Origin: Candidatus Omnitrophota bacterium
Lineage (GTDB): Bacteria > Omnitrophota > Gorgyraeia > B26-G9
NCBI GenBank assembly: GCA_018813905.1
Contig: JAHJAO010000086.1
Location: 702 to 64,701, forward strand
DNA length: 64,000 nt
Direction of reading: 5' to 3'
Shown here: piece by piece, positions 1 through 32,445 of the stretch
How positions within the stretch are numbered: position 1 is the first letter of the stretch
Layout of the letters: every line of letters starts with the position of its first letter
Notes under the pieces: generated by a model
The model's input: the letters and a program-made list of their open reading frames with translations, nothing else
Databases searched by the model: none
What the model was told of the DNA's origin: nothing
Position numbers and translations under genes: made by a program

Positions 1-394
1 AGCCTTTGGCGTCGGTATTTATATATCCTACCCCATCACCCATTTTCTTCACCGTGTTTACCGCGCCGGATATCCGGACATGAGAACCAACATCTATTGG
101 AGCTAAATTCTTAGAAAAATTTTTTTCAATTATTTCCCGCGCTCTGACTTTATGCGGAATGGTTATATTAAAACCTAAAATATCGCTTGTGCGATAAGGC
201 TTGCCTGTAATATCTTTTACTTCTATATCCTTCAGCAAAAAATCCTCCAGCTTTTCCGGTTTTACTTCGAACAATTCATACCGGGCATTAATACCGAGGC
301 GTTCAAACGCCGCGTTATGCATTGCCTTGGAAAAGCTGTGCTTTACCGGATAGCCGATGAGGCCGTATGTTTGGGGTGAGCTGGAATGTTTCAT
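1..394 (-). CDS. aroE: shikimate dehydrogenase, N-terminal part (3' end runs off the window)
   Basis: Manual minus-strand translation from the ATG at 394 gives MKHSSSPQTYGLIGYPVKHSFSKAMHNAAFERLGINARYELFEV...GFNITIPHK...AVNT, the AroE N-terminal substrate-binding signature. Start is 4 nt downstream of the leuA stop. Confidence 0.8.
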   Translation of the reverse strand, partial: MKHSSSPQTYGLIGYPVKHSFSKAMHNAAFERLGINARYELFEVKPEKLEDFLLKDIEVKDITGKPYRTSDILGFNITIPHKVRAREIIEKNFSKNLAPIDVGSHVRISGAVNTVKKMGDGVGYINTDAKG

Positions 395-397
395 GTC

Positions 398-1936
398 CTA
401 CAATCTTATCCTGCGCGCGGCTTTGGTTTTGAACAAAAACCGGTTGATAACGTTAAGATACGCCTTGACGGAAGCTTCAATAATATCGGTGCTGGCAGCT
501 CTACCGGAAATCTCCTGCTTCGCCACCTTTAATTTTATATTCACTTCACCCAAAGCGTCTTTTCCGGAAGTTATCGCTTGAATGGAATAATCAATTAATT
601 TCGCCCGGATTTTGGTAATCTTTTCAATCGCCCTGTAGCAGGCATCCACCGGGCCGTCGCCGTAAGAGGTCGCCTCGTACGCCTTATTCTTCTTCCCAAG
701 GCAAACGGTGGCCTGCGGGTTGATTTGCGTGCCGCCGCAGAATTTAAAACTTTTAATCGCCCAAACCCGGGGCAGTTCTTTCATCTGTTCTTCCACGATA
801 GAAATCAAATCTTCCTCGAAAATCTCTTTTTTCTTATCCGCGAGCTTTTTGAACCGGCCAAACGCGTTTTCAAGCTGCTGCTTATTTAGTTTAAAGCCCA
901 ACAGTTTCAGCCGTTCAATTAGGGCGTGCCGGCCGGAATGTTTGCCCAGAACAAGCCCCTCTCCGTAAAAGCCGACATCTTCGGGCCGGATAATTTCATA
1001 GGTCTGTCTTTTTTTTAACACTCCGTCCTGATGAATTCCGGATTCGTGGCGGAAGGCATTACCTCCGACAATCGCCTTGTTCGGGGCGACAACAAAACCG
1101 GTTAACTTGCTCACCAGGCGGCTGGTTTTGTAAATCTGTTTTGTGTCGATACCAGTTGTTTTGCCTTCAAAAAATTCCTTTCGGGTATTCAAGCTCAAAA
1201 CAAGTTCTTCAAGCGCGGCGTTTCCCGCGCGTTCGCCGATGCCGTTGACCGTGCATTCTACTTGTCTTGCTCCGTTCTTTATCGCGCCTAGAGAATTCGC
1301 CACGGCCAGCCCTAAATCATTATGGCAGTGTACGGATATTATCGCCCGGGAAATATTGGGCACATTATTACAAATCGCCCGGATAAGTTCGCCGAACTCG
1401 CCCGGCTGCGCGTACCCTACGGTATCCGGGATATTCACCGTGGTCGCGCCGGCGTCAATTACCTCTTCAATAACGCGGAACAAAAACTCTCTTTCGGTGC
1501 GCGACGCATCCTCGGGTGAAAATTCGATATCGTTACAAAAACGGCGCGCGTACTTTACCGCCGCCTGCGCGATCTTTATTATTTCCGCCTCGGCCTTTTT
1601 CAATTTGTATTTCATGTGGATTTTGGAGGTGGCCAAAAATACGTGGATACGCTTTCTCTTTGCCGGCGCGAGCGCCGCGGCCGCGGCGTCAATATCTTTA
1701 TTCAAAGACCGCGCCAAACCGCAAATCGTCGCTCCCTTTACCCTTCGGGCGATCTGCTTAACCGAATCAAAATCACCGGGTGACGATACCGGAAATCCGG
1801 CCTCGATAATATCGACGCCCAGGCGCACCAATTGATGGGCAACTTCTATCTTCTCCTGAACGCTCAGACTTGCCCCCGGCGCCTGCTCGCCGTCTCTTAA
1901 TGTCGTATCAAATATATATATTCTCTCGCCAGCCAT
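398..1936 (-). CDS. leuA: 2-isopropylmalate synthase (LeuA/CimA family)
   Basis: 512-aa ORF. N-terminus IYIFDTTLRDGEQAPGASL plus HCHNDLGLAVANSL are the DRE-TIM metallolyase motifs of LeuA. Has the C-terminal regulatory domain. Sits in the ilv context. Confidence 0.85.
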   Translation of the reverse strand: MAGERIYIFDTTLRDGEQAPGASLSVQEKIEVAHQLVRLGVDIIEAGFPVSSPGDFDSVKQIARRVKGATICGLARSLNKDIDAAAAALAPAKRKRIHVFLATSKIHMKYKLKKAEAEIIKIAQAAVKYARRFCNDIEFSPEDASRTEREFLFRVIEEVIDAGATTVNIPDTVGYAQPGEFGELIRAICNNVPNISRAIISVHCHNDLGLAVANSLGAIKNGARQVECTVNGIGERAGNAALEELVLSLNTRKEFFEGKTTGIDTKQIYKTSRLVSKLTGFVVAPNKAIVGGNAFRHESGIHQDGVLKKRQTYEIIRPEDVGFYGEGLVLGKHSGRHALIERLKLLGFKLNKQQLENAFGRFKKLADKKKEIFEEDLISIVEEQMKELPRVWAIKSFKFCGGTQINPQATVCLGKKNKAYEATSYGDGPVDACYRAIEKITKIRAKLIDYSIQAITSGKDALGEVNIKLKVAKQEISGRAASTDIIEASVKAYLNVINRFLFKTKAARRIRL

Positions 1937-1942
1937 TTTATT

Positions 1943-2962
<1,020 letters not shown>

Positions 2963-2973
2963 TTATTAACAAA

Positions 2974-4047
2974 TTATCTTTGTTCTTCTGCTCTCTTGAC
3001 TAACGTGTTTAATTCCTCTTCATCCAGCGTATGTTTTAATGCCTCGGCGTAACTGATTTTACCTTTTTCCACCAGCTCGCTTAAAGACTGGTTCATGGTT
3101 TTCATACCGTATTTTCTTCCCGTCTGAACCAGGGAATATATTTGATGGAGCTGGTTTTCCCGGATTAAATTTTGAATCGCCGGCATAACCGTCATCACTT
3201 CCGTCGCCAGGCACCGGCCGGTACCGCGCACGTCGGGAACAAGCTTTTGCACGAGCACGCCGATCAAGACCAAAGAAAGCTGTACTCTAATCTGCTGCTG
3301 CTGATAAGCCGGAAAAACATCCACGATCCGGGTAATAGAATGGGTACAGCTACCGGTATGCAGCGTCGCCAAAATCAGGTGCCCGGTTTCCGCCAGCGTC
3401 AACGCCGCCTGAATCGTTTCCAAATCTCTCATCTCGCCGATAACGACAATATCCGGATCCTGACGGAACACGTGCTTAAGCGCCTCCTGATATGAAAGCG
3501 TATCCGTTCCCAACTGCCTCTGGTTTATCGTGCTTAAATTGTGTTTATGCAAATACTCTATGGGGTCTTCGATCGCAATAATATGCGCGTGCCTTTTCTT
3601 GTTTATATAATTTATTATCGCCGCCTGCGTGGTTGATTTACCGCTGCCGGTCGCGCCGGTTATCAATACTAAGCCGCTGGGCTTATCCGCATAGTCTTTT
3701 ACAATCTCCGGCAGCGTCAATTCTTCAATCGTCGGGATGCGAAACGGAATAACTCTCGCGGCCATGGCAATAGAATCGCGCTGGTAATAGAGATTTATGC
3801 GGAACCGGCTGAGGTCACGAATCCCCCAGGAAAAATCCAGCTCTTTTTCCCGTTCAAACCGTTCAATCTGCTCTTTTGTCAATATATCGTAACACATGCT
3901 TTTAATATCTTGCGGCGAAAGCGGCTCAAAATCGGTATAAATAAGGTTACCCGCTACTCGCAACTGCGGCGCAATACCAACGGTAAGATGCAGGTCCGAA
4001 GCTCCCTTTTCTACGATTAACCGCAAAAGCTGTTCGATATTCAGCAT
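2974..4047 (-). CDS. pilT: type IV pilus retraction ATPase PilT (PilT/PilU family)
   Basis: 357 aa. Walker A GATGSGKSTT, typical PilT N-terminal domain and His box. Sits between ilvN and ilvC. Confidence 0.85.
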   Translation of the reverse strand: MLNIEQLLRLIVEKGASDLHLTVGIAPQLRVAGNLIYTDFEPLSPQDIKSMCYDILTKEQIERFEREKELDFSWGIRDLSRFRINLYYQRDSIAMAARVIPFRIPTIEELTLPEIVKDYADKPSGLVLITGATGSGKSTTQAAIINYINKKRHAHIIAIEDPIEYLHKHNLSTINQRQLGTDTLSYQEALKHVFRQDPDIVVIGEMRDLETIQAALTLAETGHLILATLHTGSCTHSITRIVDVFPAYQQQQIRVQLSLVLIGVLVQKLVPDVRGTGRCLATEVMTVMPAIQNLIRENQLHQIYSLVQTGRKYGMKTMNQSLSELVEKGKISYAEALKHTLDEEELNTLVKRAEEQR

Positions 4048-4569: not shown

Positions 4570-6243
4570 TTATGCCATTCCGCCAATCATTCTATTTATC
4601 GCTTCACCCGCCGGAACCATGGGAAAAACATTTTCTTCCTCTTCCACAACAAAGTCGATAAACACCACATTCGGCGCGGCGATCGCCTCTTCAATTGCTT
4701 TTTCTACGTCCTGCTTTTTCTCGACGCGGAGACCTAACGCCCCGTAACTTTCGGCCAGTTTCACAAAATCCGGGTTCAGCAGCTTTGTATGCGAATACCT
4801 CTTTTTATAAAACAGCTCCTGCCATTGCCGCACCATGCCCAGATACCCGTTATTGAGAATAGCGACTTTAACATTAATTTTGCTCGCAATGGCGGTGGCG
4901 AGTTCCTGGATATTCATTTGAATCGAGCCGTCGCCGGCGATATCAAACACTACCTTATCCGGCCGGCCGATTTTCGCGCCGATAGCGGCCGGGAATCCGT
5001 AGCCCATGGTCCCCAACCCGCCGGAAGAGATGAACGTACGCGGCTTGGTATATGTATAATACTGGGCCGCCCACATCTGGTTCTGGCCCACTTCCGTACA
5101 GATAATCGCGTCTCCCTTGGTTGCTTTATAAATCTGCTCGACCGCATACTGCGGAGTTATTTTATCCCCTTTATCTTTATAGGTGAGCGGGTAACGCCGC
5201 TTCCATTCCCTAATCCGCTCAAGCCATTCTTTTGTCTGTCCCGCTTTTACCAGGCGATTCAGTTTAACCAATACGTTTTTAACATCGCCCACGATGGGAA
5301 CATGCACATGCACGTTCTTGCTTATCGCGGTGGGGTCGATATCGATATGGATAATTTTTGCGTGCGGCGCGAATTCGTCAATCTTACCGGTTACGCGGTC
5401 GTCAAAACGCGCGCCAATAGCAATAATCAAATCGCTTTCCATAACCGCATGGTTGGCGTAGACCGTTCCGTGCATGCCCAGCATCCCTAAGGACAAATCA
5501 TTATCCTCGGGGAATCCGCCCAGGCCCATTAACGTCGTCGTCACCGGCGCTTGAACCTTTATCGCCAGCTCCAACAGCTCTTCGGACGCGCCGCTGATAA
5601 TCACCCCGCCCCCGGCATAGATTATCGGCCGCTTGCTCTGATTGATTAATTTAGCCGCTTTTTTTATCTGGCCCGGATGGCCTTCGAGCGTCGGCTGGTA
5701 AGAACGGATACACACCGTATGCGGATAATTAAATTCCGCCAACTGCATCTGTACGTCTACCGGCACATCAATCACCACCGGCCCCGGCCGGCCGGTAGAA
5801 GCGATATGAAACGCTTCCTTAATCGTGCAGGCCAGTTCGGATATATCTTTCACCAGATAGTTATGCTTGGTTATCGGCCGGGTTATGCCCGTAACATCCG
5901 CTTCCTGAAAAGCATCATTGCCGATGAGGAATGTTTTTACCTGGCCCGTTATTGCCACCATCGGTATTGAATCCATATGCGCCGTAGCCAGTCCCGTTAC
6001 CAGATTCGTCGCGCCCGGGCCAGAGGTAGCAATACAAACGCCCACTTTACCGGTCGCGCGCGCATATCCGTCGGCGGCATGCGCCGCGCCCTGTTCATGC
6101 CGGACAAGCACAAAATCCAAAGGCGCATCGTAGAGCGCGTCAAACAGCGGCAATACCGAACCGCCGGGAAATCCAAAAACCACGCGCACACCTTCTTTAA
6201 GCAGAGATTCAATCAGAATCTGCGCTCCGTTTTTCTTTTCCAT
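4570..6243 (-). CDS. ilvB: acetolactate synthase large subunit (ThDP-dependent)
   Basis: 557 aa. ThDP-binding GDGS...N motif, FAD domain, typical AHAS N-terminus. Followed by ilvN. Confidence 0.9.
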
Positions 6244-7925: not shown

Positions 7926-7967
7926 CCCTTTTTTTAAAAAGATATAACGCCTTAAATAGAGTACCGA

Positions 7968-8783
7968 TTACTGATTAACCAGGATATTTATCTTGCCAAT
8001 TTTCTCGGTTAGCGCCTCTAAAGCCGTCCCGATAACCATGCCCGGCATAATTTCCTCTATCCCGGCGCGCATTGCGTGCCCGGGCAAAGACGACGTAACC
8101 AGCAAATCCCCTTTTTGTATGGGCCCGTTTTCCGCGGTTACCTTGCAGGAAACAATCCCGGCCAGGGCCACGGCTTGACTGTCCGCAGCCGCACCTAAGA
8201 GCAGCCGGGGATTTTCGGAAATCACGCCCGCAACTTTCGTGTCAAATTTATGTACAGAACGGGTTACGGTCAGCTCTTCCTGCTCGCTGATGACCACGAC
8301 ATCGGCAACAGCCGCTTCTTTCGCCCGCATGCCTTCGGCAATATCATATACGTGTTTTCCCGCAATCGGCGGAGAATTCGTATCCGGAGGAAAGCCTTCC
8401 ATTGTAATCCTATTCGCGGTCGTCAAGTTAAGCAATTGCCCATTTCCGGTATAGAAGTCAATACTGTAAGCGCCCGAGCCCACTCCGGCAGAACTGATAT
8501 TGGTCATATCAATACCGCCCGCACAAGTAAGCGCGTATAAGTACGAGCGGCCAGCCGGGTCAAGATAATATGCGGCATTCTCCAGGTCCTGAAAAATATG
8601 TGTTCTTATTTTATTATAAGCCGCAACTGCATACTGAATCCTGTATGTTTTTATGGCAATTGTTTTCTGGCTTCCGGCTTGCGCAAAACAAACCGGGTCC
8701 GTTATAACCCACTCTATGCCTAAGGCGATAAATAATACGATAAATATCCGATACATTATATGCTTTTTTACTGCTCTTTTCAT
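7968..8783 (-). CDS. exported protein of unknown family, paralog B of a tandem pair (signal peptide)
   Basis: 271 aa. N-terminal signal peptide. Shares PIAGKHVYDIAE, VAGVISENP.L.LG and LAGIV.CKVTAENGPI..GDLLVTSSL.G.AMRA blocks with the upstream paralog. 4-bp overlap with it. Confidence 0.6.
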   Translation of the reverse strand: MKRAVKKHIMYRIFIVLFIALGIEWVITDPVCFAQAGSQKTIAIKTYRIQYAVAAYNKIRTHIFQDLENAAYYLDPAGRSYLYALTCAGGIDMTNISSAGVGSGAYSIDFYTGNGQLLNLTTANRITMEGFPPDTNSPPIAGKHVYDIAEGMRAKEAAVADVVVISEQEELTVTRSVHKFDTKVAGVISENPRLLLGAAADSQAVALAGIVSCKVTAENGPIQKGDLLVTSSLPGHAMRAGIEEIMPGMVIGTALEALTEKIGKINILVNQ

Positions 8784-9598
8784 TGCTTATTTACCAGGAT
8801 AAATATTTTTCCTTTGCCTTCTGTATGCGGCTGTAACGCCTTGCCCAGCAGCATACCCGGTTTTATCTGCCCGGCCGCGGCGCGCATAGCATACCCGGCT
8901 AAAGATGAAGTTACCAGCAAATCTCCGTTTTTAATCGGCCCGTTCTCGGCGGTTACCTTGCATTTAACAATACCTGCCAACGCCAGCGGCAGCTCTCCTT
9001 CGCCTTGGCCCAGGCATAACTTTGGGTCCTCGGAAATGACCCCGGCAACGCGAGTATCATACGGGATTTGAGACCTGGCCAGGACACAGTCTTTGTCCTG
9101 GCTGATAACGACGGTATCGCCGGGCTGGCAATCCTTCGCGCTGATAGATTCGGCAATATCATATACGTGTTTTCCCGCAATCGGCGGGTTTGTGCCTCCC
9201 GGAGTTGCGGCGCCCATGGTAATCCTGTTTTGCACGGTCAAATTATTCAAGTACGCTCCGCCGCTTGAGAAATTAATACTGTATCCAGAAGCAGTTGATC
9301 CGATCATCGGCGTGTTAATGCCCGTAGCTATCTGAAGCTCCCGCATTTGGCTTGTGCCGTTGGGGTCAACCTTATAAGCCTGGTCGTCATAATCAAGCAG
9401 TACTCTTGCCTTTAAAGTAGTAAACTCGCCGAACGGAAACGGGTAAAACGTGGTTAAGGTAATCTGTTCCGGCGGGGATTGGGATATTGCCGATACCGAA
9501 TAGATAAGTAAACCCGCCAATACCAGCACAAAAAAAAGCAGCACATATTCCCAATTAACTTTTTTCGTGTTTTCGCGCGTTTGTTTAATTATGGACAT
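8780..9598 (-). CDS. membrane-anchored or exported protein of unknown family, paralog A of a tandem pair
   Basis: Start set at ATG 9598 (AGGAGG SD 8 nt upstream; track ORF begins earlier at 9676). 272 aa. N-terminal hydrophobic anchor VLLFFVLVLAGLLIY. Conserved C-terminal ~130-aa region shared with paralog B. Confidence 0.6.
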   Translation of the reverse strand: MSIIKQTRENTKKVNWEYVLLFFVLVLAGLLIYSVSAISQSPPEQITLTTFYPFPFGEFTTLKARVLLDYDDQAYKVDPNGTSQMRELQIATGINTPMIGSTASGYSINFSSGGAYLNNLTVQNRITMGAATPGGTNPPIAGKHVYDIAESISAKDCQPGDTVVISQDKDCVLARSQIPYDTRVAGVISEDPKLCLGQGEGELPLALAGIVKCKVTAENGPIKNGDLLVTSSLAGYAMRAAAGQIKPGMLLGKALQPHTEGKGKIFILVNKQ

Positions 9599-22774: not shown

Positions 22775-22996
22775 TTATACCGCCTCAACTACTTTTACGG
22801 AAGGCAGTTCCTGTTTTAATTTATTTTCTATGCCCATTTTCAGCGTCATCTGACTCATGGGACAGCCGCGGCAAGCTCCGGTCAGCTTCACTTTTACCCT
22901 TCCATCTTCGGTAACTTCAACAAGTTCTACGTCGCCGCCGTCGGCCTGAAGTGCCGGGCGAATCTTTGCCAATACTTTTTCCACATCTTCCCGCAT
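22775..22996 (-). CDS. NifU-like C-terminal domain protein (Nfu-type Fe-S scaffold/carrier)
   Basis: Start set at ATG 22996 (GAGAGGAG SD 9 nt upstream; track ORF starts at 23050). 73 aa. CRGCPMS CxxC motif of the Nfu family. Confidence 0.75.
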   Translation of the reverse strand: MREDVEKVLAKIRPALQADGGDVELVEVTEDGRVKVKLTGACRGCPMSQMTLKMGIENKLKQELPSVKVVEAV

Positions 22997-23067
22997 AACA
23001 TTTTCTCCTCTCATCTTGCCAGTAGGTAAATTACAGATTACAAATCTCAAACAAATCTAAAATTTCA

Positions 23068-23096
23068 AATTGTTAATTGTTAATTTTCAATTGTTA
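23068..23096. promoter_or_regulatory. three tandem AATTGTTA repeats (with embedded CAATTG palindrome) ~70 nt upstream of the nfu-nikR start; candidate operator/promoter element
   Basis: aattgtta at 23068-23075, 23075-23082 and 23089-23096. AT-rich. Lies between the DUF167 stop and the nfu start. Confidence 0.3.
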
Positions 23097-23327
23097 TTTC
23101 CGTTCTTCTGTCTTAATATTTAGAATCTTTTTAGAATTATATTTTCCCTTTACGAACATAATCGCCGATTTTGGCACCTTAAAATATTCGGCGAGCATAT
23201 CTAAAAGTTTGCGATTGGCCTTGCCCCGTTCGCGAGCGGTAATCAATTTTACCAAAAATTCGCCCTTGGATTGCTGAATTATTTGGTTAACCGAAGCACT
23301 GGTTATTACCTTTACGCTTATAAACAT
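23094..23327 (-). CDS. DUF167 (YggU) family protein
   Basis: 77 aa. VKVITSASVNQI...GEFLVKLITARERGKANRKLLDMLAEYFKVPKSAIMFVKGKYNSKKIL matches the DUF167/YggU pattern. Confidence 0.65.
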   Translation of the reverse strand: MFISVKVITSASVNQIIQQSKGEFLVKLITARERGKANRKLLDMLAEYFKVPKSAIMFVKGKYNSKKILNIKTEERK

Positions 23328-26106: not shown

Positions 26107-26203
26107 GCGGTACTTAGAACCTAGGGCGGGTTACTTATCTTAACTTATTGATATAAAATGAGTTATGGATGAGCAAGGCCTGTTTTATATCCAGCCGCCT
26201 AAC

Positions 26204-26264
26204 TCCAATATGCGCATGTGCACGGTATTATTTTCCGTTATCTTGACGTGCGCTTGTTGGCCGA
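26204..26264. repeat. 61-bp perfect direct repeat, copy 1 (orphan duplicate of the cupin gene 3' end; homology with mismatches extends to ~26186-26273)
   Basis: tccaatatgcgcatgtgcacggtattattttccgttatcttgacgtgcgcttgttggccga is identical to 30105-30165. On the minus strand it encodes VGQQAHVKITENNTVHMRILELGGWI*, against the cupin gene's ...LGQQAHVKITENNTVHMRILELDEWIPAKSKRGLK*. Confidence 0.9.
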
Positions 26265-26304
26265 CATAAAACTGCGGGGGTTATTTGGACACCAAATATG
26301 ATAA

Positions 26305-27537
26305 TTATTCAACGCTGGAAATATTGATATCTTTTACTCTCGTATTTTCCAAGCTAACATTAAGCGCAATCTCTTTCCTTAAAGGTTCATTCTTAAAATC
26401 ATAAATCAGAACATCTTTATATGTTATTGCCGCAGGGGTTTTAGAAACCTTTAATTTTTCCGGTAATATCGTTTTTATATCAGAAATGTCCATTCCTTTA
26501 TATACCCTTCCATAAAAAGTATAGACTTCACTGACCGGTTTTTCTTTATAATGCTTTTTAACCAGTTTCTCTCCTGTCAATAGCAAATAATCTTCTTTAA
26601 ATTCTTCTTTATAACAAAATTCTTTCATCGATGTTCTTTCTATATGATTTTTCTCGCCTACATAAAATTTTGACTTTTCTTTGACAAACATACTTTCTTT
26701 TATATAGTTTTCTATCTTTTTTATCCTGTCAGGCACGGGGGGATGTGTTGAAAAATATCTTACGAGCAGTCCTACAGTCGCTCTTGCCGTATCTCCAACT
26801 GGCGTAATTGGTTCAAAAAATTCTCCTTTAGATAATTCCTTTTCAAAGATACGTTTAAAGACAGAAACAGCAGCTAAAGGATGATATCCCGCTTTGTAGG
26901 CCAAATATACTCCTCCCAAATCCGCCTCCGTTTCCTGAAATTCAGAGTATCCAGTTTTTAAAAAAATTTGGTAGCCGATATCCACATAAGTATCTAAATC
27001 CATCACCCCTATAATTTTTTCCAACCTAATTTTATATTGAATTGCTCCAATACAATGCTTTGCGTCAACATGCACTATCTCGTGCCCTAAGATAGCTGCT
27101 AGTTCTGCTTCGGATTTGAGTTGAGCGATTAACCCCATTGAGATATAAATATGCCCTCCGGGAAGCGCAAACGCTTCCGGATAGAAACTATCTAAGATAT
27201 GGGTTTTATAATTAATTTTTTTTCTCTTTACGTTTTTACAAATTATCTGTGCCACCTCATCTATATATTTATGTATTGGGGTATTATTAAACTTTTCTTT
27301 TCCATAAGAAACGCTAATTTTCTTATGTATTTTATTTCCGACCTCCATTTCTTCTTCATCGGTTAAAGAAGTTAAAATATGCCCGGCCTTGTCCGCATGA
27401 TGCAAGATACTTTCAACAAACTCGGAAACCGAATTAAAACTCACTTTATCCGAAGGATTGCCTTTAATCATAATAAATGCAATCGCCAGAATGCTGACTA
27501 ATAAACTAACCGCTAAATAAACATTCCTTAGTTTCAT
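26305..27537 (-). CDS. M48-family zinc metalloprotease (BepA/YfgC/HtpX-like), N-terminal membrane anchor
   Basis: 410 aa. N-terminal TM helix. ILGHEIVHVDAKH matches the M48 HEXXH..H consensus (cf. BepA AHEISHVTQRH). Markedly AT-rich relative to its neighbours. Confidence 0.75.
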   Translation of the reverse strand: MKLRNVYLAVSLLVSILAIAFIMIKGNPSDKVSFNSVSEFVESILHHADKAGHILTSLTDEEEMEVGNKIHKKISVSYGKEKFNNTPIHKYIDEVAQIICKNVKRKKINYKTHILDSFYPEAFALPGGHIYISMGLIAQLKSEAELAAILGHEIVHVDAKHCIGAIQYKIRLEKIIGVMDLDTYVDIGYQIFLKTGYSEFQETEADLGGVYLAYKAGYHPLAAVSVFKRIFEKELSKGEFFEPITPVGDTARATVGLLVRYFSTHPPVPDRIKKIENYIKESMFVKEKSKFYVGEKNHIERTSMKEFCYKEEFKEDYLLLTGEKLVKKHYKEKPVSEVYTFYGRVYKGMDISDIKTILPEKLKVSKTPAAITYKDVLIYDFKNEPLRKEIALNVSLENTRVKDINISSVE

Positions 27538-27548
27538 AAAAACTTCTA

Positions 27549-30062
27549 TTATATAAACTTTTTGATTGTATCTTTATATTTCGTATAAATAAATGAGACG
27601 AAAAGCAATATCGCACCCAGCGCTATTAAAGACAATATGTAATGTAACGTGGATAGTTGTCTCAAATCAATCAAAAACGCTTTTAATAACGTTCCGAACA
27701 AAATTATAAGCCCATATATACGCCAATTTTTGTCTTTAAACCCAAACCCAAACAAAAATAGCAATAATCCCTCTGTCCCCAAACCGATAGTTAACATTAC
27801 CCCGCTTAATTTTACCATCAAAATCGTCGTTAAGAGAATAGTTGCCGATAAACCAAAAACAAATCTCGGCCAATATAAAAACTTCCTTATAAGCCCTCTT
27901 TTTAATTCTGTAACATTTTCGATTATTTGCCTGGCAGTCAAATAGATAAAATTACCGGCGTACAAAGCCCCTACGGTAATACTTGAAAAAAACATATCGC
28001 CGGTCATCCCTACCAGATATTTTTCCTGCAAAACATTGACAAAAATAGCTCTTAATGCGGCGGCGATTGCGGCGATTGAACTGATAGCAAGATAACAGTG
28101 TTTTTTTGATCTTATCGCGATGAATGAATATATTAAGGCGATAATTCCCCATGCAGCTGCGACAACATGCTTAGGTGCTTCAGCTCTCGTTAAAAACATG
28201 ATGCTGCCAAAAATTAAATAATGATAAACTATCCCCATCTTTTTTTCCGCTTCGTTTAATATCGCCTTTATTTTTTCGTCATTTAAAAGCATGACGCAAT
28301 AGTAAAAAAGCATGATGACGGGTGTTACACTCAAAATTCGATAACTAATCCCTCCGATCTCACCGTCAATGGACATATTGGACATGAGCAGCCTTAGAAA
28401 ACTTCCTACTCCCAACACAAAACCTTGCAACCTTTGATAATTCGTATTATTCGAAATCCCCAATCGCAATAAGATAACTCCTAATATCATCCAAGCCGGA
28501 GCTGTCAAAACTTTTGGCAAATCAAGCCATGTTCCCAGCACGTAGATAATAATATAAGCGTAAGAAATTATTGGCGGATGACTCTTTTCCTTTTCGATAA
28601 GCATTTTTTTTCTTTCAAGACGTTGATACGCGAGATAGTCGATTAAATAGGCAACCGCCGCAAAACATAAGAAAAGAATCCGTTTACTTAAATGATAACT
28701 TAACGGTATGTTCTCTATTAAGGGGATATCGGCAAATAAAATTTTACCTAAAATCAGCATCAAAAAGCTAAATGAGAATATCCGCCAGTAAGGCTCTTTC
28801 AATACTATACCTGTCAAAAATACAACTTGTGCAAGAATGATGTAAGATACCGTAAGTTTATATCCCGCATATTCCAACGCTAAAAAGTAAGCTGTAAATA
28901 AGATGGAAAAGATAGAGCTGATCAAGCATAATTGTCTCTGCTTAAAACAATAAGAAATAATAGTGAGCATTAAATACAATCCTGCCCCAATTAATAATGC
29001 TGGTCGCACATACTCCATAAATCCGTTTTGCAGCAAAAAGTAAGTTAAAAACGCGACAACTACAGCATTAACGATGTGGGTCGCTTCTTTTATCCTGATA
29101 TATAAATTGTTATTGTCATTGTCCCGGATAAGAAACGTCGCTAAAACAAAAATTGCCCAGTAAAGGCCAAGGAATCCTATTGCCGTAAAAAATTGCGTTT
29201 TCCCTAAAATCACGCCCGGTGTTGGCGTAAACCAGCAAAGATAAGTAAAATACGTCATGGCCATTCCATATAAACCGAATTTTGCCCATTGCTCTTTAAC
29301 CAGAAAGAAAATGAGGGATAGAGCTACAAGGGTAGTCGCTAACATCGTGTACAGAGACAAAGGGGAAACCATCAAGGTTATAAACATTAAAAGGTATGAA
29401 AATACAGTTGCCAATTCCGATCTATATTTATATATGTGGGCTGCCGCCGCGAATGATACACCCAAGAGAAATACTATTCCGATCAAGGGGCTTTTTATTA
29501 ATTGGACATCGGCAATATGATGCATCGCGTATGTCGTAAAATACAATATTGCCCATGCACCACCAATTAAAGTTTTACCGTAAACAGAAAAGTTATTTTT
29601 CTTTTCAATTTTAGCCCCAAAAATAAGTATACCTAATCCGCTTACATATCCTATGGAAATTTTACCGACAGCCCCTAAATACTTGAAGGAATATCCAATT
29701 AAAAGGGCAATCCCGATTACAACCGCAAGAATACCCAGCTTATTGAATAATTTTCCACCTAAAATCTGTTCAAAATTCTCTATCCAGCTCTTTTTTTGTT
29801 TAGGTAATTCTGTTGTTGTTTGAAACTTTGGTTTTTCAGTTTTTTTTACCTCTTCTTTTTTTACGTCTTGCGGTTTTTCTTCTTTTGCAACTATTTGCTT
29901 GCCGCTTCTTATCTCCTCTATTTCTTTAAGAATCCTCTTTGCCTGGTTTTCCAATTGAGCGAGTCTATCTTCGCTGCCTAAAAGTTCTAGAGGAATCCTG
30001 CAAAGTAAACATACTCCCCATAAATCGCCATACTGCTTACCGCATTTTGGACACTCTTTCAT
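27549..30062 (-). CDS. large polytopic membrane protein with N-terminal zinc ribbon and coiled coil (DUF2339-like)
   Basis: 837 aa. MKECPKCGKQYGDLWGVCLLCRIP C4 ribbon, K/E-rich coiled-coil linker, then >20 predicted TM helices in repeated blocks. AT-rich. Start overlaps the cupin stop (ATGA). Confidence 0.65.
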   Translation of the reverse strand: MKECPKCGKQYGDLWGVCLLCRIPLELLGSEDRLAQLENQAKRILKEIEEIRSGKQIVAKEEKPQDVKKEEVKKTEKPKFQTTTELPKQKKSWIENFEQILGGKLFNKLGILAVVIGIALLIGYSFKYLGAVGKISIGYVSGLGILIFGAKIEKKNNFSVYGKTLIGGAWAILYFTTYAMHHIADVQLIKSPLIGIVFLLGVSFAAAAHIYKYRSELATVFSYLLMFITLMVSPLSLYTMLATTLVALSLIFFLVKEQWAKFGLYGMAMTYFTYLCWFTPTPGVILGKTQFFTAIGFLGLYWAIFVLATFLIRDNDNNNLYIRIKEATHIVNAVVVAFLTYFLLQNGFMEYVRPALLIGAGLYLMLTIISYCFKQRQLCLISSIFSILFTAYFLALEYAGYKLTVSYIILAQVVFLTGIVLKEPYWRIFSFSFLMLILGKILFADIPLIENIPLSYHLSKRILFLCFAAVAYLIDYLAYQRLERKKMLIEKEKSHPPIISYAYIIIYVLGTWLDLPKVLTAPAWMILGVILLRLGISNNTNYQRLQGFVLGVGSFLRLLMSNMSIDGEIGGISYRILSVTPVIMLFYYCVMLLNDEKIKAILNEAEKKMGIVYHYLIFGSIMFLTRAEAPKHVVAAAWGIIALIYSFIAIRSKKHCYLAISSIAAIAAALRAIFVNVLQEKYLVGMTGDMFFSSITVGALYAGNFIYLTARQIIENVTELKRGLIRKFLYWPRFVFGLSATILLTTILMVKLSGVMLTIGLGTEGLLLFLFGFGFKDKNWRIYGLIILFGTLLKAFLIDLRQLSTLHYILSLIALGAILLFVSFIYTKYKDTIKKFI

Positions 30063-30502
30063 TTTAGACCTCTTTTCGATTTAGCCGGTATCCACTCGTC
30101 CAGTTCCAATATGCGCATGTGCACGGTATTATTTTCCGTTATCTTGACGTGCGCTTGTTGGCCGAGGGTAACAATGCCGTGCCAGATACCTTTTTTAAGC
30201 ACAATGGGTTTATCCAAGATAAATGCCTCAATATCCCGCGGCTTTTTCTGGGTAGAAACATAAAGAATTGATTTTCCCTTTACCGGTTCAAAACTCTCCA
30301 TGGAATAAGGATGCCGCTCTAACCGGTTGATCCGCTTCTCGCGCACAATAAGGTAGGCAATGCGCCAGCCTGTGACTTTAGCATCATTTACTACAATCCG
30401 GAACTGATTTTTGCTTTTTTTATTCTCTGGCCCCTGCCATTCGATAACCCAGCCGAATTTTTTAAAATTATTTTTGTTTATCTTCTTTGCCGTTATGTTC
30501 AT
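30059..30502 (-). CDS. small cupin-fold protein (ureidoglycolate lyase/AllA-like HPxSxExF motif)
   Basis: 147 aa. HPYSMESFEPVKG resembles the cupin metal-site motif. Its 3' end contains repeat copy 2. Confidence 0.5.
   Translation of the reverse strand: MNITAKKINKNNFKKFGWVIEWQGPENKKSKNQFRIVVNDAKVTGWRIAYLIVREKRINRLERHPYSMESFEPVKGKSILYVSTQKKPRDIEAFILDKPIVLKKGIWHGIVTLGQQAHVKITENNTVHMRILELDEWIPAKSKRGLK
30105..30165. repeat. 61-bp perfect direct repeat, copy 2 (inside the 3' end of the cupin gene)
   Basis: Identical to 26204-26264. The two copies are 3,901 bp apart and bracket the AT-rich M48 + membrane-protein segment. Confidence 0.9.
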
Positions 30503-32445
30503 CTTCCCTTTTTCCCTTTTGTAAAGTTCAATAATCCCCCGGCTTTTATAATTTCCTTTTGACGCGCGCTTAAAACATAGCTCAGCTCAAACTCTATCTT
30601 CTTCGTATCGTCTTGAATTACGATATTCCTGTTTTTATTCAAACACTTAAAAATGTCCGATATGGTAATTACGTCGTATTTTTCGATCCGGTCATAATCA
30701 TGCTTTCTAGCAAATACTAGCGGCAGAATGCCGAAATTCACTAGATTCGCCGCGTGAATACGTTCGAACGATTTGGCAAAAACCGCTTTTACCCCTAAAT
30801 ACATCGGGCACATGGCCGCATGCTCCCGGCTTGAACCTTGGCCGTAACTTTCACCGGCTAAAATAAAGGCGGCTTTCTTTTTCGCCTTTAATTTAAGCGC
30901 CCGACAGGCAAAATCAGGATCAATTTCTTTAAACACAAATTCGGAATACTTTTCTACGTTGGAACGGTATTTAAGATAAGACCCCGCGGGCATAATATGG
31001 TCGGTAGTAATTTTATCTGCGACTTTAATGGCGATATTACCCGTTAATTTATCTAAAAGAGGCGTATTTTTCGGCGGCGTGCCGATGTTTGGGCCGCGGT
31101 AAATAGTGACACTAGAAGAAACTTTCTGGTTTTGGATAATCATGCGATCATCGATATCAAATTTATCCGGCATTTTAAAACGGGGGATATCTTTACCCTC
31201 TTTATCCCATGGGTTTGCAATTCGCCCGGTGATCGCGGAAAAAGCCGCGGTTTCCGGCGATACCAAATACACTTTTGCTGATTTTGTACCGCTGCGGCCT
31301 TCGAAATTACGGTTACTTGTACGCAGGGATATTGCGTTTGTCTTTGGCGCCTGGCCAATGCCGATACAAAATCCGCATACGCTTTCCATTATTCTCGCAC
31401 CGCTATCGATTAAGCTGGATAAGGTACCATTTTTGGAAATCATGGACAAGACCTGACGCGAACCGGGCGCTATCGCCAAAGACACGTCCGGATGCACTGT
31501 TTTTCCTTCCAGGATTTTACCCGCCACCATTAAATCCCGTAACGAAGAATTAGTACAGCTGCCGATAATAACCTGATCCACTTTTTCTCCGGCTACTTTT
31601 TTTATGGGCACGACATTTCCCGGTGAATGCGGTAAGCTGGCCATAGGCACAATTTTCGACAAGTCGACGGTTAGTGTCTTTGCATACTCGCACTGGGCAT
31701 CTGCGGACAACTGCTGCCAATCCTTCTTTCTGTCTTGCGCTATCAAAAACTGCCGCGTTATTTCATCGGAAGGAAAAATGCTTGTAGTCACCCCGGTTTC
31801 CGCGCCCATATTCGCAATGGTCGCACGTTCCGGCACAGAAAGAGTCCTTACGCCCTCGCCGCAATATTCCAGCACGTTATTCACGTTGCCCTTTGTGGAC
31901 AGGATGCTTAAAATATAAAGAATAACATCTTTTGCCGAGACCCAACTGCGTAATTTGCCCTCCAGTTCGACCCGGATAACCCGGGGCACGGTAAGATAAA
32001 ACGCACTTCCGCTCATGGCCACGGCGACATCCAATCCCCCCGCCCCAATAGCGAGCATACCGATACCGCCCGCGGTCGGAGTATGGCTATCCGAACCGAG
32101 CAATGTCTTGCCCGGCTTGGCAAACCGCTCAAGATGCACCTGATGGCAAATACCGTTTCCCGCTCTTGAGAATTTAATCCCGTATTTTGCCGCTACGGTC
32201 TGTAAGTACCGGTGGTCGTCCGCATTTTCAAAACCAACCTGGAGCGTATTATGGTCCACATAGCTTACGGACAGCTCCGTCTTAATGCGCGGTATCGCCA
32301 TAGCTTCAAATTGTAAATAGGCCATGGTTCCGGTCGCGTCCTGAGTCAGGGTCTGGTCGATTTTAATCCCGATTTCTTCCCCTGACGCTAATTTCCCGGA
32401 GACGAGATGATTTTTTAAAATTTTATAAGTTAGGTTAAGTCCCAT
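30499..32445 (-). CDS. aconitase-family hydro-lyase, compact 648-aa form, catalytic domains 1-3 + C-terminal swivel domain
   Basis: GSDSHTPTAGG, IGSCTNSS and swivel-domain SREHAAM motifs. AcnA-type domain order. Substrate (aconitate vs isopropylmalate vs homoaconitate) not decidable from sequence. Confidence 0.75.
   Translation of the reverse strand: MGLNLTYKILKNHLVSGKLASGEEIGIKIDQTLTQDATGTMAYLQFEAMAIPRIKTELSVSYVDHNTLQVGFENADDHRYLQTVAAKYGIKFSRAGNGICHQVHLERFAKPGKTLLGSDSHTPTAGGIGMLAIGAGGLDVAVAMSGSAFYLTVPRVIRVELEGKLRSWVSAKDVILYILSILSTKGNVNNVLEYCGEGVRTLSVPERATIANMGAETGVTTSIFPSDEITRQFLIAQDRKKDWQQLSADAQCEYAKTLTVDLSKIVPMASLPHSPGNVVPIKKVAGEKVDQVIIGSCTNSSLRDLMVAGKILEGKTVHPDVSLAIAPGSRQVLSMISKNGTLSSLIDSGARIMESVCGFCIGIGQAPKTNAISLRTSNRNFEGRSGTKSAKVYLVSPETAAFSAITGRIANPWDKEGKDIPRFKMPDKFDIDDRMIIQNQKVSSSVTIYRGPNIGTPPKNTPLLDKLTGNIAIKVADKITTDHIMPAGSYLKYRSNVEKYSEFVFKEIDPDFACRALKLKAKKKAAFILAGESYGQGSSREHAAMCPMYLGVKAVFAKSFERIHAANLVNFGILPLVFARKHDYDRIEKYDVITISDIFKCLNKNRNIVIQDDTKKIEFELSYVLSARQKEIIKAGGLLNFTKGKKGR

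Follow-up and report, generated by a model that had tools for sequence, protein, structure and literature searches.

We analysed a 64,000-nt window of contig JAHJAO010000086.1, part of the metagenome-assembled genome (MAG) of a Candidatus Omnitrophota bacterium and 99.995% identical to contig JAHJFN010000044.1 of GCA_018824825.1. Within it lies a segment inserted at the 3′ end of a cupin gene that carries two genes, one for a zinc-ribbon DUF2339 protein and one for an M48 metalloprotease. All genes of the region are on the minus strand, in the order aconitase, cupin, DUF2339, M48, an orphaned cupin 3′ end, a gene for a 395-aa protein and a gene for a pyridoxal phosphate (PLP)-dependent enzyme. 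The insert proper spans 26267-30088 (3,822 bp), and the only open reading frames (ORFs) inside it are those of the DUF2339 and M48 proteins. Its left junction falls precisely between the final cupin codon (ATA) and the cupin stop codon; the last nine codons of the present cupin gene (PAKSKRGLK*) come from the inserted DNA, with the frame running through a 26-nt linker to a TGA stop that overlaps the DUF2339 start codon (ATGA). The 38 nt at the right end contain a 7-bp AT-rich hairpin, TATTTGG-TGT-CCAAATA. A sequence-only reading of this DNA had bracketed an insertion at 26186-30165; the insertion itself stands, and the insert proper is narrowed to the limits given here. That reading let the homology of the orphaned cupin end reach 26186 and 26273, where alignment to the empty site gives 26188 and 26266.

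The insert is bounded by two direct copies of the cupin 3′ end. A core of 61 nt is shared without mismatch at a spacing of 3,901 nt, and dinucleotide shuffles of the window gave zero matches of this kind. Copy 2 is the in-frame end of the 147-aa cupin gene and copy 1, beyond the M48 gene, is an orphan that still translates in the same frame (...VGQQAHVKITENNTVHMRILELGGWI*), as the sequence-only reading had described. The full homology of 79 nt was set by positions 8251-8329 of a sister strain with an empty site (L001, see below), which align to both copies. Mismatches between the copies are distributed unevenly, with 0/61 in the core against 6/16 in the gene-distal last 16 nt (Fisher p = 3.4e-5) and 2/2 at the first two positions of the homology, its gene-proximal edge; the core is thus of recent common origin, either homogenised or exchanged, and the edges are old. 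Both copies carry bases specific to the window (CAACAA, as compared with CGGCAG in L001 and CGCGAG in a further relative, L003). L001 stands exactly midway in the distal part, three differences away from either copy; copy 2 has two states in common with L003, and copy 1 is L001-like with three changes of its own. The identical core could have arisen by any of three routes: gene conversion accompanied by edge divergence, excision and re-insertion by crossing-over within the core, or a recent crossover between homeologous cupin ends.

Direct repeats around an insertion call to mind the target-site duplication of a transposase-like enzyme, and at this locus direct repeats do flank the insertion. 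However, 79 nt far exceeds known target duplications, the 0/61 against 6/16 mismatches rule out a simple duplication of the target, and neither terminal inverted repeats nor a transposase was found at the insert. An assembly artefact, which the sequence-only reading had named as a possible undoing of its proposal, is excluded by independent spans of the junctions with unique sequence flanking each copy: the left junction (cupin, copy 2, DUF2339) in GCA_018826325.1 (L005) and the right junction (M48, copy 1, next gene) in ENA ERZ928008 (L009). Both junctions are also spanned in L004. Together these observations refute duplication by a transposase and misassembly alike, and we hold either to be exceedingly improbable.

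Relative to the ancestral gene order, the segment is a true insertion that is gained or lost at the level of strains. The sister strain L001 (GCA_043826625.1), 96.8% identical to the window left of the insert and 95.2% right of it, has the order aconitase, 138-aa cupin (ending ...ELGEWI*) and 394-aa gene with nothing between them, and the DNA downstream of the orphan copy is collinear with this empty-site strain. The empty site recurs in L002, a Logan contig of run SRR26275510 that matches L001 at 100% identity across 1,788 bp. No DUF2339 or M48 gene occurs within 10 kb in 24 species-level genomes with the cupin gene, where the usual order is aconitase, one gene, cupin and PLP enzyme. The pair is absent as well from a nearer outgroup (L035), whose cupin ends ...AWDI*. 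The orphan copy ends ...GGWI*, resembling both the ...GEWI* of the empty-site strain and the ...AWDI* of L035. As these outgroups lack the pair, the occupied state is the derived one, and it is the orphan copy that preserves the original end of the gene. The sequence-only reading had interpreted the arrangement in this way, as a replacement cupin 3′ end with the displaced original left as an orphan, and had asked whether an empty site exists; the gene ends of L001 and L035 and the sister strain's empty site bear it out on both points.

Table 1 Features of the insertion locus (window positions; all on the minus strand)
Feature	Position	Strand	Details
Aconitase	30499-32445	(-)	
Cupin / ureidoglycolate-lyase-like gene, 147 aa	30059..30502	(-)	PF04115, E 2.6e-9
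Repeat copy 2 (attL-like), last 79 nt of native cupin coding sequence to final codon ATA	30089..30167	(-)	perfect core 30105-30165
Left end of insert, 26 nt (ccggctaaatcgaaaagaggtctaaa), holds DUF2339 ribosome-binding site	30063..30088	(-)	
Arc3A-family zinc-ribbon + DUF2339 protein, 837 aa	27549..30062	(-)	PF10101
M48 zinc metalloprotease, 410 aa	26305..27537	(-)	PF01435, E 4.5e-26
Right end of insert, 38 nt past M48 stop codon	26267..26304	(-)	boundary from empty-site alignment
Repeat copy 1 (attR-like), orphaned original cupin 3′ end	26188..26266	(-)	perfect core 26204-26264; original stop TAA 26185-26187
Secreted protein, 395 aa	24848-26035	(-)	

The inserted DNA is compositionally foreign. 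Its GC content is 0.356, against 0.445 and 0.450 in the 10-kb flanks, and no other 3.8-kb stretch of the window has so low a value (mean 0.456, sd 0.029). GC at third codon positions (GC3) is 0.30 and 0.37 in its two genes and 0.47-0.53 in neighbouring genes; since the gap sits in third codon positions, it is more than an effect of the amino acids of membrane proteins, and the AT-richness noticed in the sequence-only reading holds in both measures. The nearest known homologs of the DUF2339 and M48 proteins share 58% protein identity with them, which leaves the donor unsampled, and the closest M48 homolog is on a contig of GC 0.356. At three other loci (L006, L008 and L045) the DUF2339 gene begins 1-2 nt past a marR gene, and the ~21 nt that precede the DUF2339 start in the window, inside the 26-nt linker, resemble the marR 3′ tail of L006 and L008 (window ...atcgaaaagaggtctaaaATG; L008 atcgctaaggaggtctaagATG; L006 atcgtaaaggaggcataagATG). 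A promoterless operon fragment may therefore have been captured, cut inside the last marR codons, though the match is suggestive only because the ribosome-binding site makes up part of it. No promoter-like site stands out at the new position of the DUF2339 gene.

The age of the fusion can be gauged from L003, a 1.9-kb Logan contig of a relative whose aconitase is 87% identical to that of the window in protein and 85% in DNA. It encodes the same 147-aa type of cupin, ending ...WISVESKGAPK*, followed by the start of a zinc-ribbon DUF2339 gene, and its cupin::DUF2339 junction is identical to the base with that of the window. Against the window, its repeat is 73% identical, its linker 77% and the first 90 nt of its DUF2339 gene 78%, values that are not above those of the flanking genes. 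A junction common to an 85% relative, with an insert as diverged as its surroundings, indicates that the fusion is old, which runs against a simple recent integration as envisaged in the sequence-only reading. The comparison suggests that the fusion was made once before the window, L001 and L003 lineages split, or was passed between lineages long ago. We considered whether an L003-like lineage had donated the cupin 3′ end and rejected this, as three-way informative sites keep the window and L001 as sister lineages relative to L003 right up to the junction. The empty state of L001 and L002 would then be either a secondary precise deletion across the repeats or an old empty allele kept in the population.

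Superimposed on this history is a mosaic of recombination. Between the window and L001, synonymous divergence (dS) is 0.07-0.12 in ApbE, aconitase, Ldh, the PLP enzyme and the first half of the cupin gene, rises to 0.39 in the second half of the cupin gene and reaches 0.60 in the 395-aa gene, where dN/dS is 0.2. L005 differs from the window by 22 single-nucleotide polymorphisms (SNPs) in aconitase but not at all over the 857 nt that run from the start of the cupin gene into the DUF2339 gene, and L009 is identical to the window across 3.85 kb of insert and downstream gene, save one homopolymer indel. From this pattern it seems that the insertion-bearing block has been exchanged between strains via flanking homology. 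The product of the 395-aa gene has a signal peptide and a HEAVH motif and matches nothing in Pfam, NCBIfam or PADLOC; it is 78% identical to its L001 ortholog, where neighbouring genes are 97-99% identical. Set against the ~0.1 background, the dS of this gene and its dN/dS indicate an old or imported allele and not positive selection. The matching position of L035 holds a 412-aa gene with no Pfam match.

The mechanism proposed in the sequence-only reading was site-specific integration. In the form weighed here, a cassette with its own attP-like copy of the cupin 3′ end would excise as a circle and go back into the cupin 3′ end, served by a recombinase encoded elsewhere or by a host enzyme that acts on a specific site. 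The topology is exactly that of attL and attR, with arms that are homeologous past a sharp boundary of identity (0/61 to 6/16); the cupin gene is intact with a replacement 3′ end while the orphan keeps the native one; a sister strain has an empty site; the distribution is patchy (window and L003 occupied; L001, L002 and L035 empty); and the insert hardly varies from one dataset to another. Prophage e14 and phage 21, which integrate into the 3′ end of icd in Escherichia coli, provide a precedent: there too the insert supplies a slightly different gene 3′ end, and the orphaned original and the new end form direct repeats. They are, however, prophages of >10 kb that encode their own integrase and excisionase, whereas the present segment has two cargo genes and no recombinase, and its junction is common with a distant relative by apparent co-descent. 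Indeed, no recombinase Pfam family was found in the insert or in 10 kb on either side, in agreement with the absence of an integrase noted from the sequence alone, and the insert of L003, the only other occupied cupin site, is as diverged as its flanks, arguing for co-descent over repeated visits. Four further DUF2339-M48 modules (L006, L007, L008 and L010) have no flanking direct repeats (4/4), and those examined sit in ordinary operons. The left end resembles the tail of a marR gene rather than an att arm, an inverted-repeat scan saw no inverted-repeat core in the repeat, and no empty site of the window type (cupin ...TLGQQ...ELGGWI*) occurs among 144 cupin homologs.

Additional evidence that would bear on mobility comes from Logan contigs found through the exact M48 protein. 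One of these, L056 (SRR26275510_183091), closes on itself, its 3,901 unique bp being followed by a terminal overlap of 30 nt; it matches window positions 26204-30165, and its order, M48, 38 nt, repeat core, distal part of the copy 2 type, linker and DUF2339, gives the attP-type junction expected if a circle had been excised or the unit stood in tandem. The empty-site contig L002 comes from the same run, in which the dominant strain has the empty site. L056 is no proof of a circle, since in a de Bruijn graph with k=31 every direct repeat that exceeds k in length closes a cycle of this kind; the contig may represent a real circle, or it may equally be an artefact of the graph in which the thin connectors from a minor occupied strain to the flanks of the dominant empty-site strain were trimmed by the assembler. 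The second contig, L057 (SRR2544004), has 3,900 bp 100% identical to the window and ends 30 nt into the repeat at each side, as an assembler with k=31 ordinarily does where a repeat branches. With nothing showing a recombinase, with the other modules unflanked and with a marR-like left end, we regard site-specific integration as unlikely, albeit worth keeping in view. A bolder version makes the pair a recombinase-less, promoterless cassette, in which a 3,901-bp circle would re-insert at the cupin end via its own 79-nt decoy copy and spread an anti-phospholipase defence by host or trans-acting recombination; to this we assign a slender chance. If L056 did represent real circles, the locus would be an unusual minimal mobile cassette.

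Other vehicles were looked for. IMG/VR viral contigs hold no relative of the DUF2339 protein or the cupin and so give no sign of a phage vehicle, and tRNA and Rfam scans of the whole window found nothing, so the segment is not a tRNA-linked island. A scan of JGI metagenomes with a 41-nt degenerate pattern over the repeat core of the three lineages gave 0 hits. An integron gene cassette would have in common with this segment a compact promoterless unit that depends on an upstream promoter, is bounded by repeats and is possibly circularisable. It differs in that the inverted-repeat scan revealed no attC-like imperfect palindrome at the boundaries and no intI was found within 10 kb; moreover, the repeat here is host coding sequence that is also in the empty site, and the segment comprises two genes and 3.8 kb. 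Reading the repeat by eye showed a single GTTAGGC, which lies in the distal part of copy 1 and has no counterpart at the other junction (chance expectation roughly 0.15 per 79 nt on two strands), and it was rejected as an integron core site; a dif/Xer-like site was rejected in the same way, as the XerD-type arm is absent.

A different possibility is that the fusion is old elsewhere, perhaps without an orphan there, and was taken up only recently, and once, into the empty site of the window lineage through the cupin end as a homology anchor, the direct repeat being created only then. The route could have been a Campbell-type single crossover with a circular molecule, which duplicates its anchor on both sides, or homology-facilitated illegitimate recombination; both are one-off entries of foreign DNA by way of a short homologous anchor, documented in the laboratory for naturally transformable bacteria, and need no element-encoded enzyme. 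Such an event would suit the window-specific bases in both copies, which place the duplication or homogenisation after the split of the window from L001, and the jump of dS at mid-cupin, where it goes from 0.11 to 0.39 as it would at the beginning of an imported tract; it would also suit the identity of the block between strains that differ in aconitase and the lack of amelioration in GC3. The orphan, however, would then be recipient DNA, expected to differ from L001 by ~3%, yet it differs at 9/77 positions, six of them shared with copy 2, and this divergence means that gene conversion is still needed. The 3′ half of the window's cupin is still closer to L001 than to L003, and for neither gene is a donor known with more than 58% protein identity. 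Both laboratory-type routes differ from what we see in that the structure here is old and its repeat core was apparently homogenised afterwards. We consider a recent one-off acquisition improbable.

The explanation that we favour, and to which we give about an even chance, is a non-autonomous chromosomal islet that is maintained, lost and exchanged by the homologous recombination of its host and is not self-mobile. An Omnitrophota donor of lower GC would have supplied it from an ordinary marR-DUF2339-M48 operon, as a promoterless fragment that was cut ~26 nt before the DUF2339 start and 38 nt past the M48 stop and joined exactly between the final codon and the stop of the cupin gene. With the cupin's last 79 nt now on both sides, the topology is the one that a single crossover between two homeologous cupin 3′ ends would produce. 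The pair would be expressed by read-through from the aconitase-cupin operon and by translational coupling at the ATGA overlap, its marR control gone. Later on, host homologous recombination would drive the presence/absence polymorphism: gene conversion or cycles of excision and re-insertion would keep the 61-nt core identical while the edges diverge, crossing-over between the repeats would delete the segment precisely and account for the sister strain (L001/L002), and the block from mid-cupin to the next gene would be swapped between strains via flanking homology.

Several observations weigh against this islet. To keep the core identical over time on the scale of L003, conversion would have to be frequent between very short repeats, which is plausible but unproven, and the same recombination should often delete the insert, so that continued selection has to be assumed. 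The old age rests on the single 1.9-kb contig L003, which stops short of the right junction, and the GC3 of the insert shows no amelioration whatever. Divergence from L001 is only 3% in the 130-nt spacer that separates the orphan copy from the gene after it; the block is therefore not one simple tract and is at odds with a single haplotype block of old age. Five datasets agree in the insert to 99.97-100% where flanking genes differ by up to 1.8%, which also fits a recent spread. Finally, the closed cycle L056 comes from a sample with a dominant empty-site strain, as a real excised circle would give.

What the segment carries can be placed more closely than the sequence-only reading had allowed when it called the cargo unassignable. 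The 837-aa protein matches PF10101 over profile positions 1-658 of 659 (E 1.1e-29), and its structural model has an N-terminal CxxC...CxxC zinc ribbon, a helix, a disordered linker and ~26 transmembrane helices, long helices that lie between residues 93 and 828. The DUF2339 family has been characterised as Arc3A in Pseudomonas aeruginosa, where relatives were defined by PF10101 and Arc3A was the factor most critical for survival of the type VI phospholipase toxin Tle3, preventing the build-up of lysophospholipid (PMC8926400). The role of Arc3 was confirmed against other lipase effectors (bioRxiv 10.1101/2024.10.26.620397). Genes for Arc3A relatives often adjoin aas and are also found without Arc3B, and the text of the paper makes no mention of an M48 partner (PMC8926400). 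Beside the DUF2339 gene of the window Arc3B (PF13163) was not found, the neighbour being PF01435 (M48) with no match to any other family. The earlier suggestion of a defence cassette, in the sense of defence against phages, has been dropped because PADLOC gave no match for the DUF2339, M48, cupin or next gene.

The 410-aa protein is a true member of the M48 peptidase family by its sequence. Its N-terminal membrane anchor is followed by a protease domain with the motif HEIVH (152-156) and a C-terminal beta-rich domain (~333-408), and H152, E153 and H156 are invariant across 31 homologs. The best solved relatives are Geobacter PDB 3c37 (E 2.8e-22) and then the BepA protease domain; Foldseek aligned our structural model (pLDDT 77.6) to 3c37 with E 7.6e-11 and a TM score of 0.78 on the target, and for the C-terminal domain it gave weak matches only (BamE, 5tgn), with no confident structural match. 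We rejected a BepA equivalog, as the protein scores 56 with the NCBIfam BepA model, whose cut-off is 570, and Pfam matched no TPR domain. With BepA, LoiP and M48 proteins of the 3c37 type, the protein thus has in common the M48 fold and HExxH site, whereas it differs from BepA-type proteins in having the membrane anchor and the small beta-rich domain instead of a TPR. In L009, loss of one base of an A8 run at window position 27223 leaves ORFs of 114 and 232 aa in the M48 gene, which could reflect a genuine frameshift or a homopolymer error.

The pairing of the two genes, whose co-occurrence the sequence-only reading had proposed to examine, proved to be a conserved operon. An M48 gene is directly downstream of the DUF2339 gene at 15 of the 16 loci with visible downstream DNA, and the pairing holds also for a distant DUF2339 homolog, 31% identical (L053). 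Beside DUF2339-M48 modules we found fusions of MFS, PlsC-acyltransferase and AMP-binding domains of the LplT/Aas type (L048/L054 and L053), alpha/beta hydrolases (L006, L041, L048 and L008) and a phospholipid-synthesis cluster (L007). In L054 the order is marR, LplT/Aas-type fusion (1,138-1,167 aa across L048/L054 and L053), alpha/beta hydrolase, small membrane protein, DUF2339 and M48, the last encoding 712 aa; the arrangements in L048/L054 (434-10295) and L053 (1571-9239) look like a larger conserved lipid-repair gene cluster around Arc3A relatives. From family membership and genomic context, the DUF2339-M48 pair is probably an Arc3-like module against lipid damage in which M48 replaces Arc3B. 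In such an envelope module the multi-helix protein would limit phospholipase or lysophospholipid damage, and the membrane-anchored M48 protein would take the partner role of Arc3B.

Compared with Arc3 of Pseudomonas aeruginosa (Arc3A PA5114 and Arc3B PA5113; Ting et al., eLife 2022, PMC8926400), the module has the family itself in common, PF10101 being that paper's own criterion, together with many densely packed transmembrane helices, no evident catalytic residues and homologous modules beside LplT/Aas-type genes, as reported there for arc3. It differs in its neighbour, an M48 metalloprotease and not Arc3B (PF13163), and in the shorter Arc3A-family protein, with ~26 helices against the 35 reported and an N-terminal zinc ribbon. 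The locus thus combines known kinds, an Arc3-like module and an insertion at a gene end, and is not a new category. Taken as a recombining islet, it would be a clean illustration from an uncultivated phylum of how an operon for defence or maintenance can be attached to a housekeeping operon in nature and then come and go among strains via very short repeats. The conserved pairing gives Arc3A-family proteins a second, widely conserved partner in M48, the pair often lying beside LplT/Aas-type lysophospholipid-repair genes, and this partner gives a concrete, testable handle on the mechanism of Arc3A.

Two other loci with the pair deserve mention. In L050 (JGI Ga0315294_10025501, 1-3279) the DUF2339-M48 pair is followed ~15 nt on by a PLP-enzyme gene that is 60% identical to the PLP gene two genes downstream of the window's insert; the contig starts inside the DUF2339 gene, and the resemblance could be coincidence or a second lineage with the pair in the same neighbourhood. 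In L010 a 32-nt direct repeat (3643-3674 and 5274-5305, 84% identical) lies right after the M48 stop and brackets three small ORFs (133, 191 and 142 aa) with no Pfam match.

Several smaller differences were seen around the locus and elsewhere in the window. An OsmC-family gene lies between aconitase and cupin in L035 (9605-10000), and more distant species (L011-L020 and L034) have a ~1.2-kb gap there; the window, L001 and L003 have no such gene, and aconitase and cupin overlap there by 4 nt, a clade-specific second rearrangement. In MAG JAHITE01 the cupin gene is split near residue 65 across two contig ends (L026 1-203 and L033 8453-8647), which could be an ordinary assembly break or a population variant within the gene. 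Between the otherwise near-identical strains of the window and L009, a dense cluster of substitutions and indels at 22850-23080 surrounds two small ORFs on the minus strand, 22775-23050 and 23094-23327, which match NifU (PF01106) and a PF1765-like family (PF02594). Finally, two repeat pairs in the window, 7967-8170 with 8782-8985 and 8317-8372 with 9132-9187, are both spaced by 815 nt, one pair being 72% and one 88% identical, and probably mark tandem paralogous genes.

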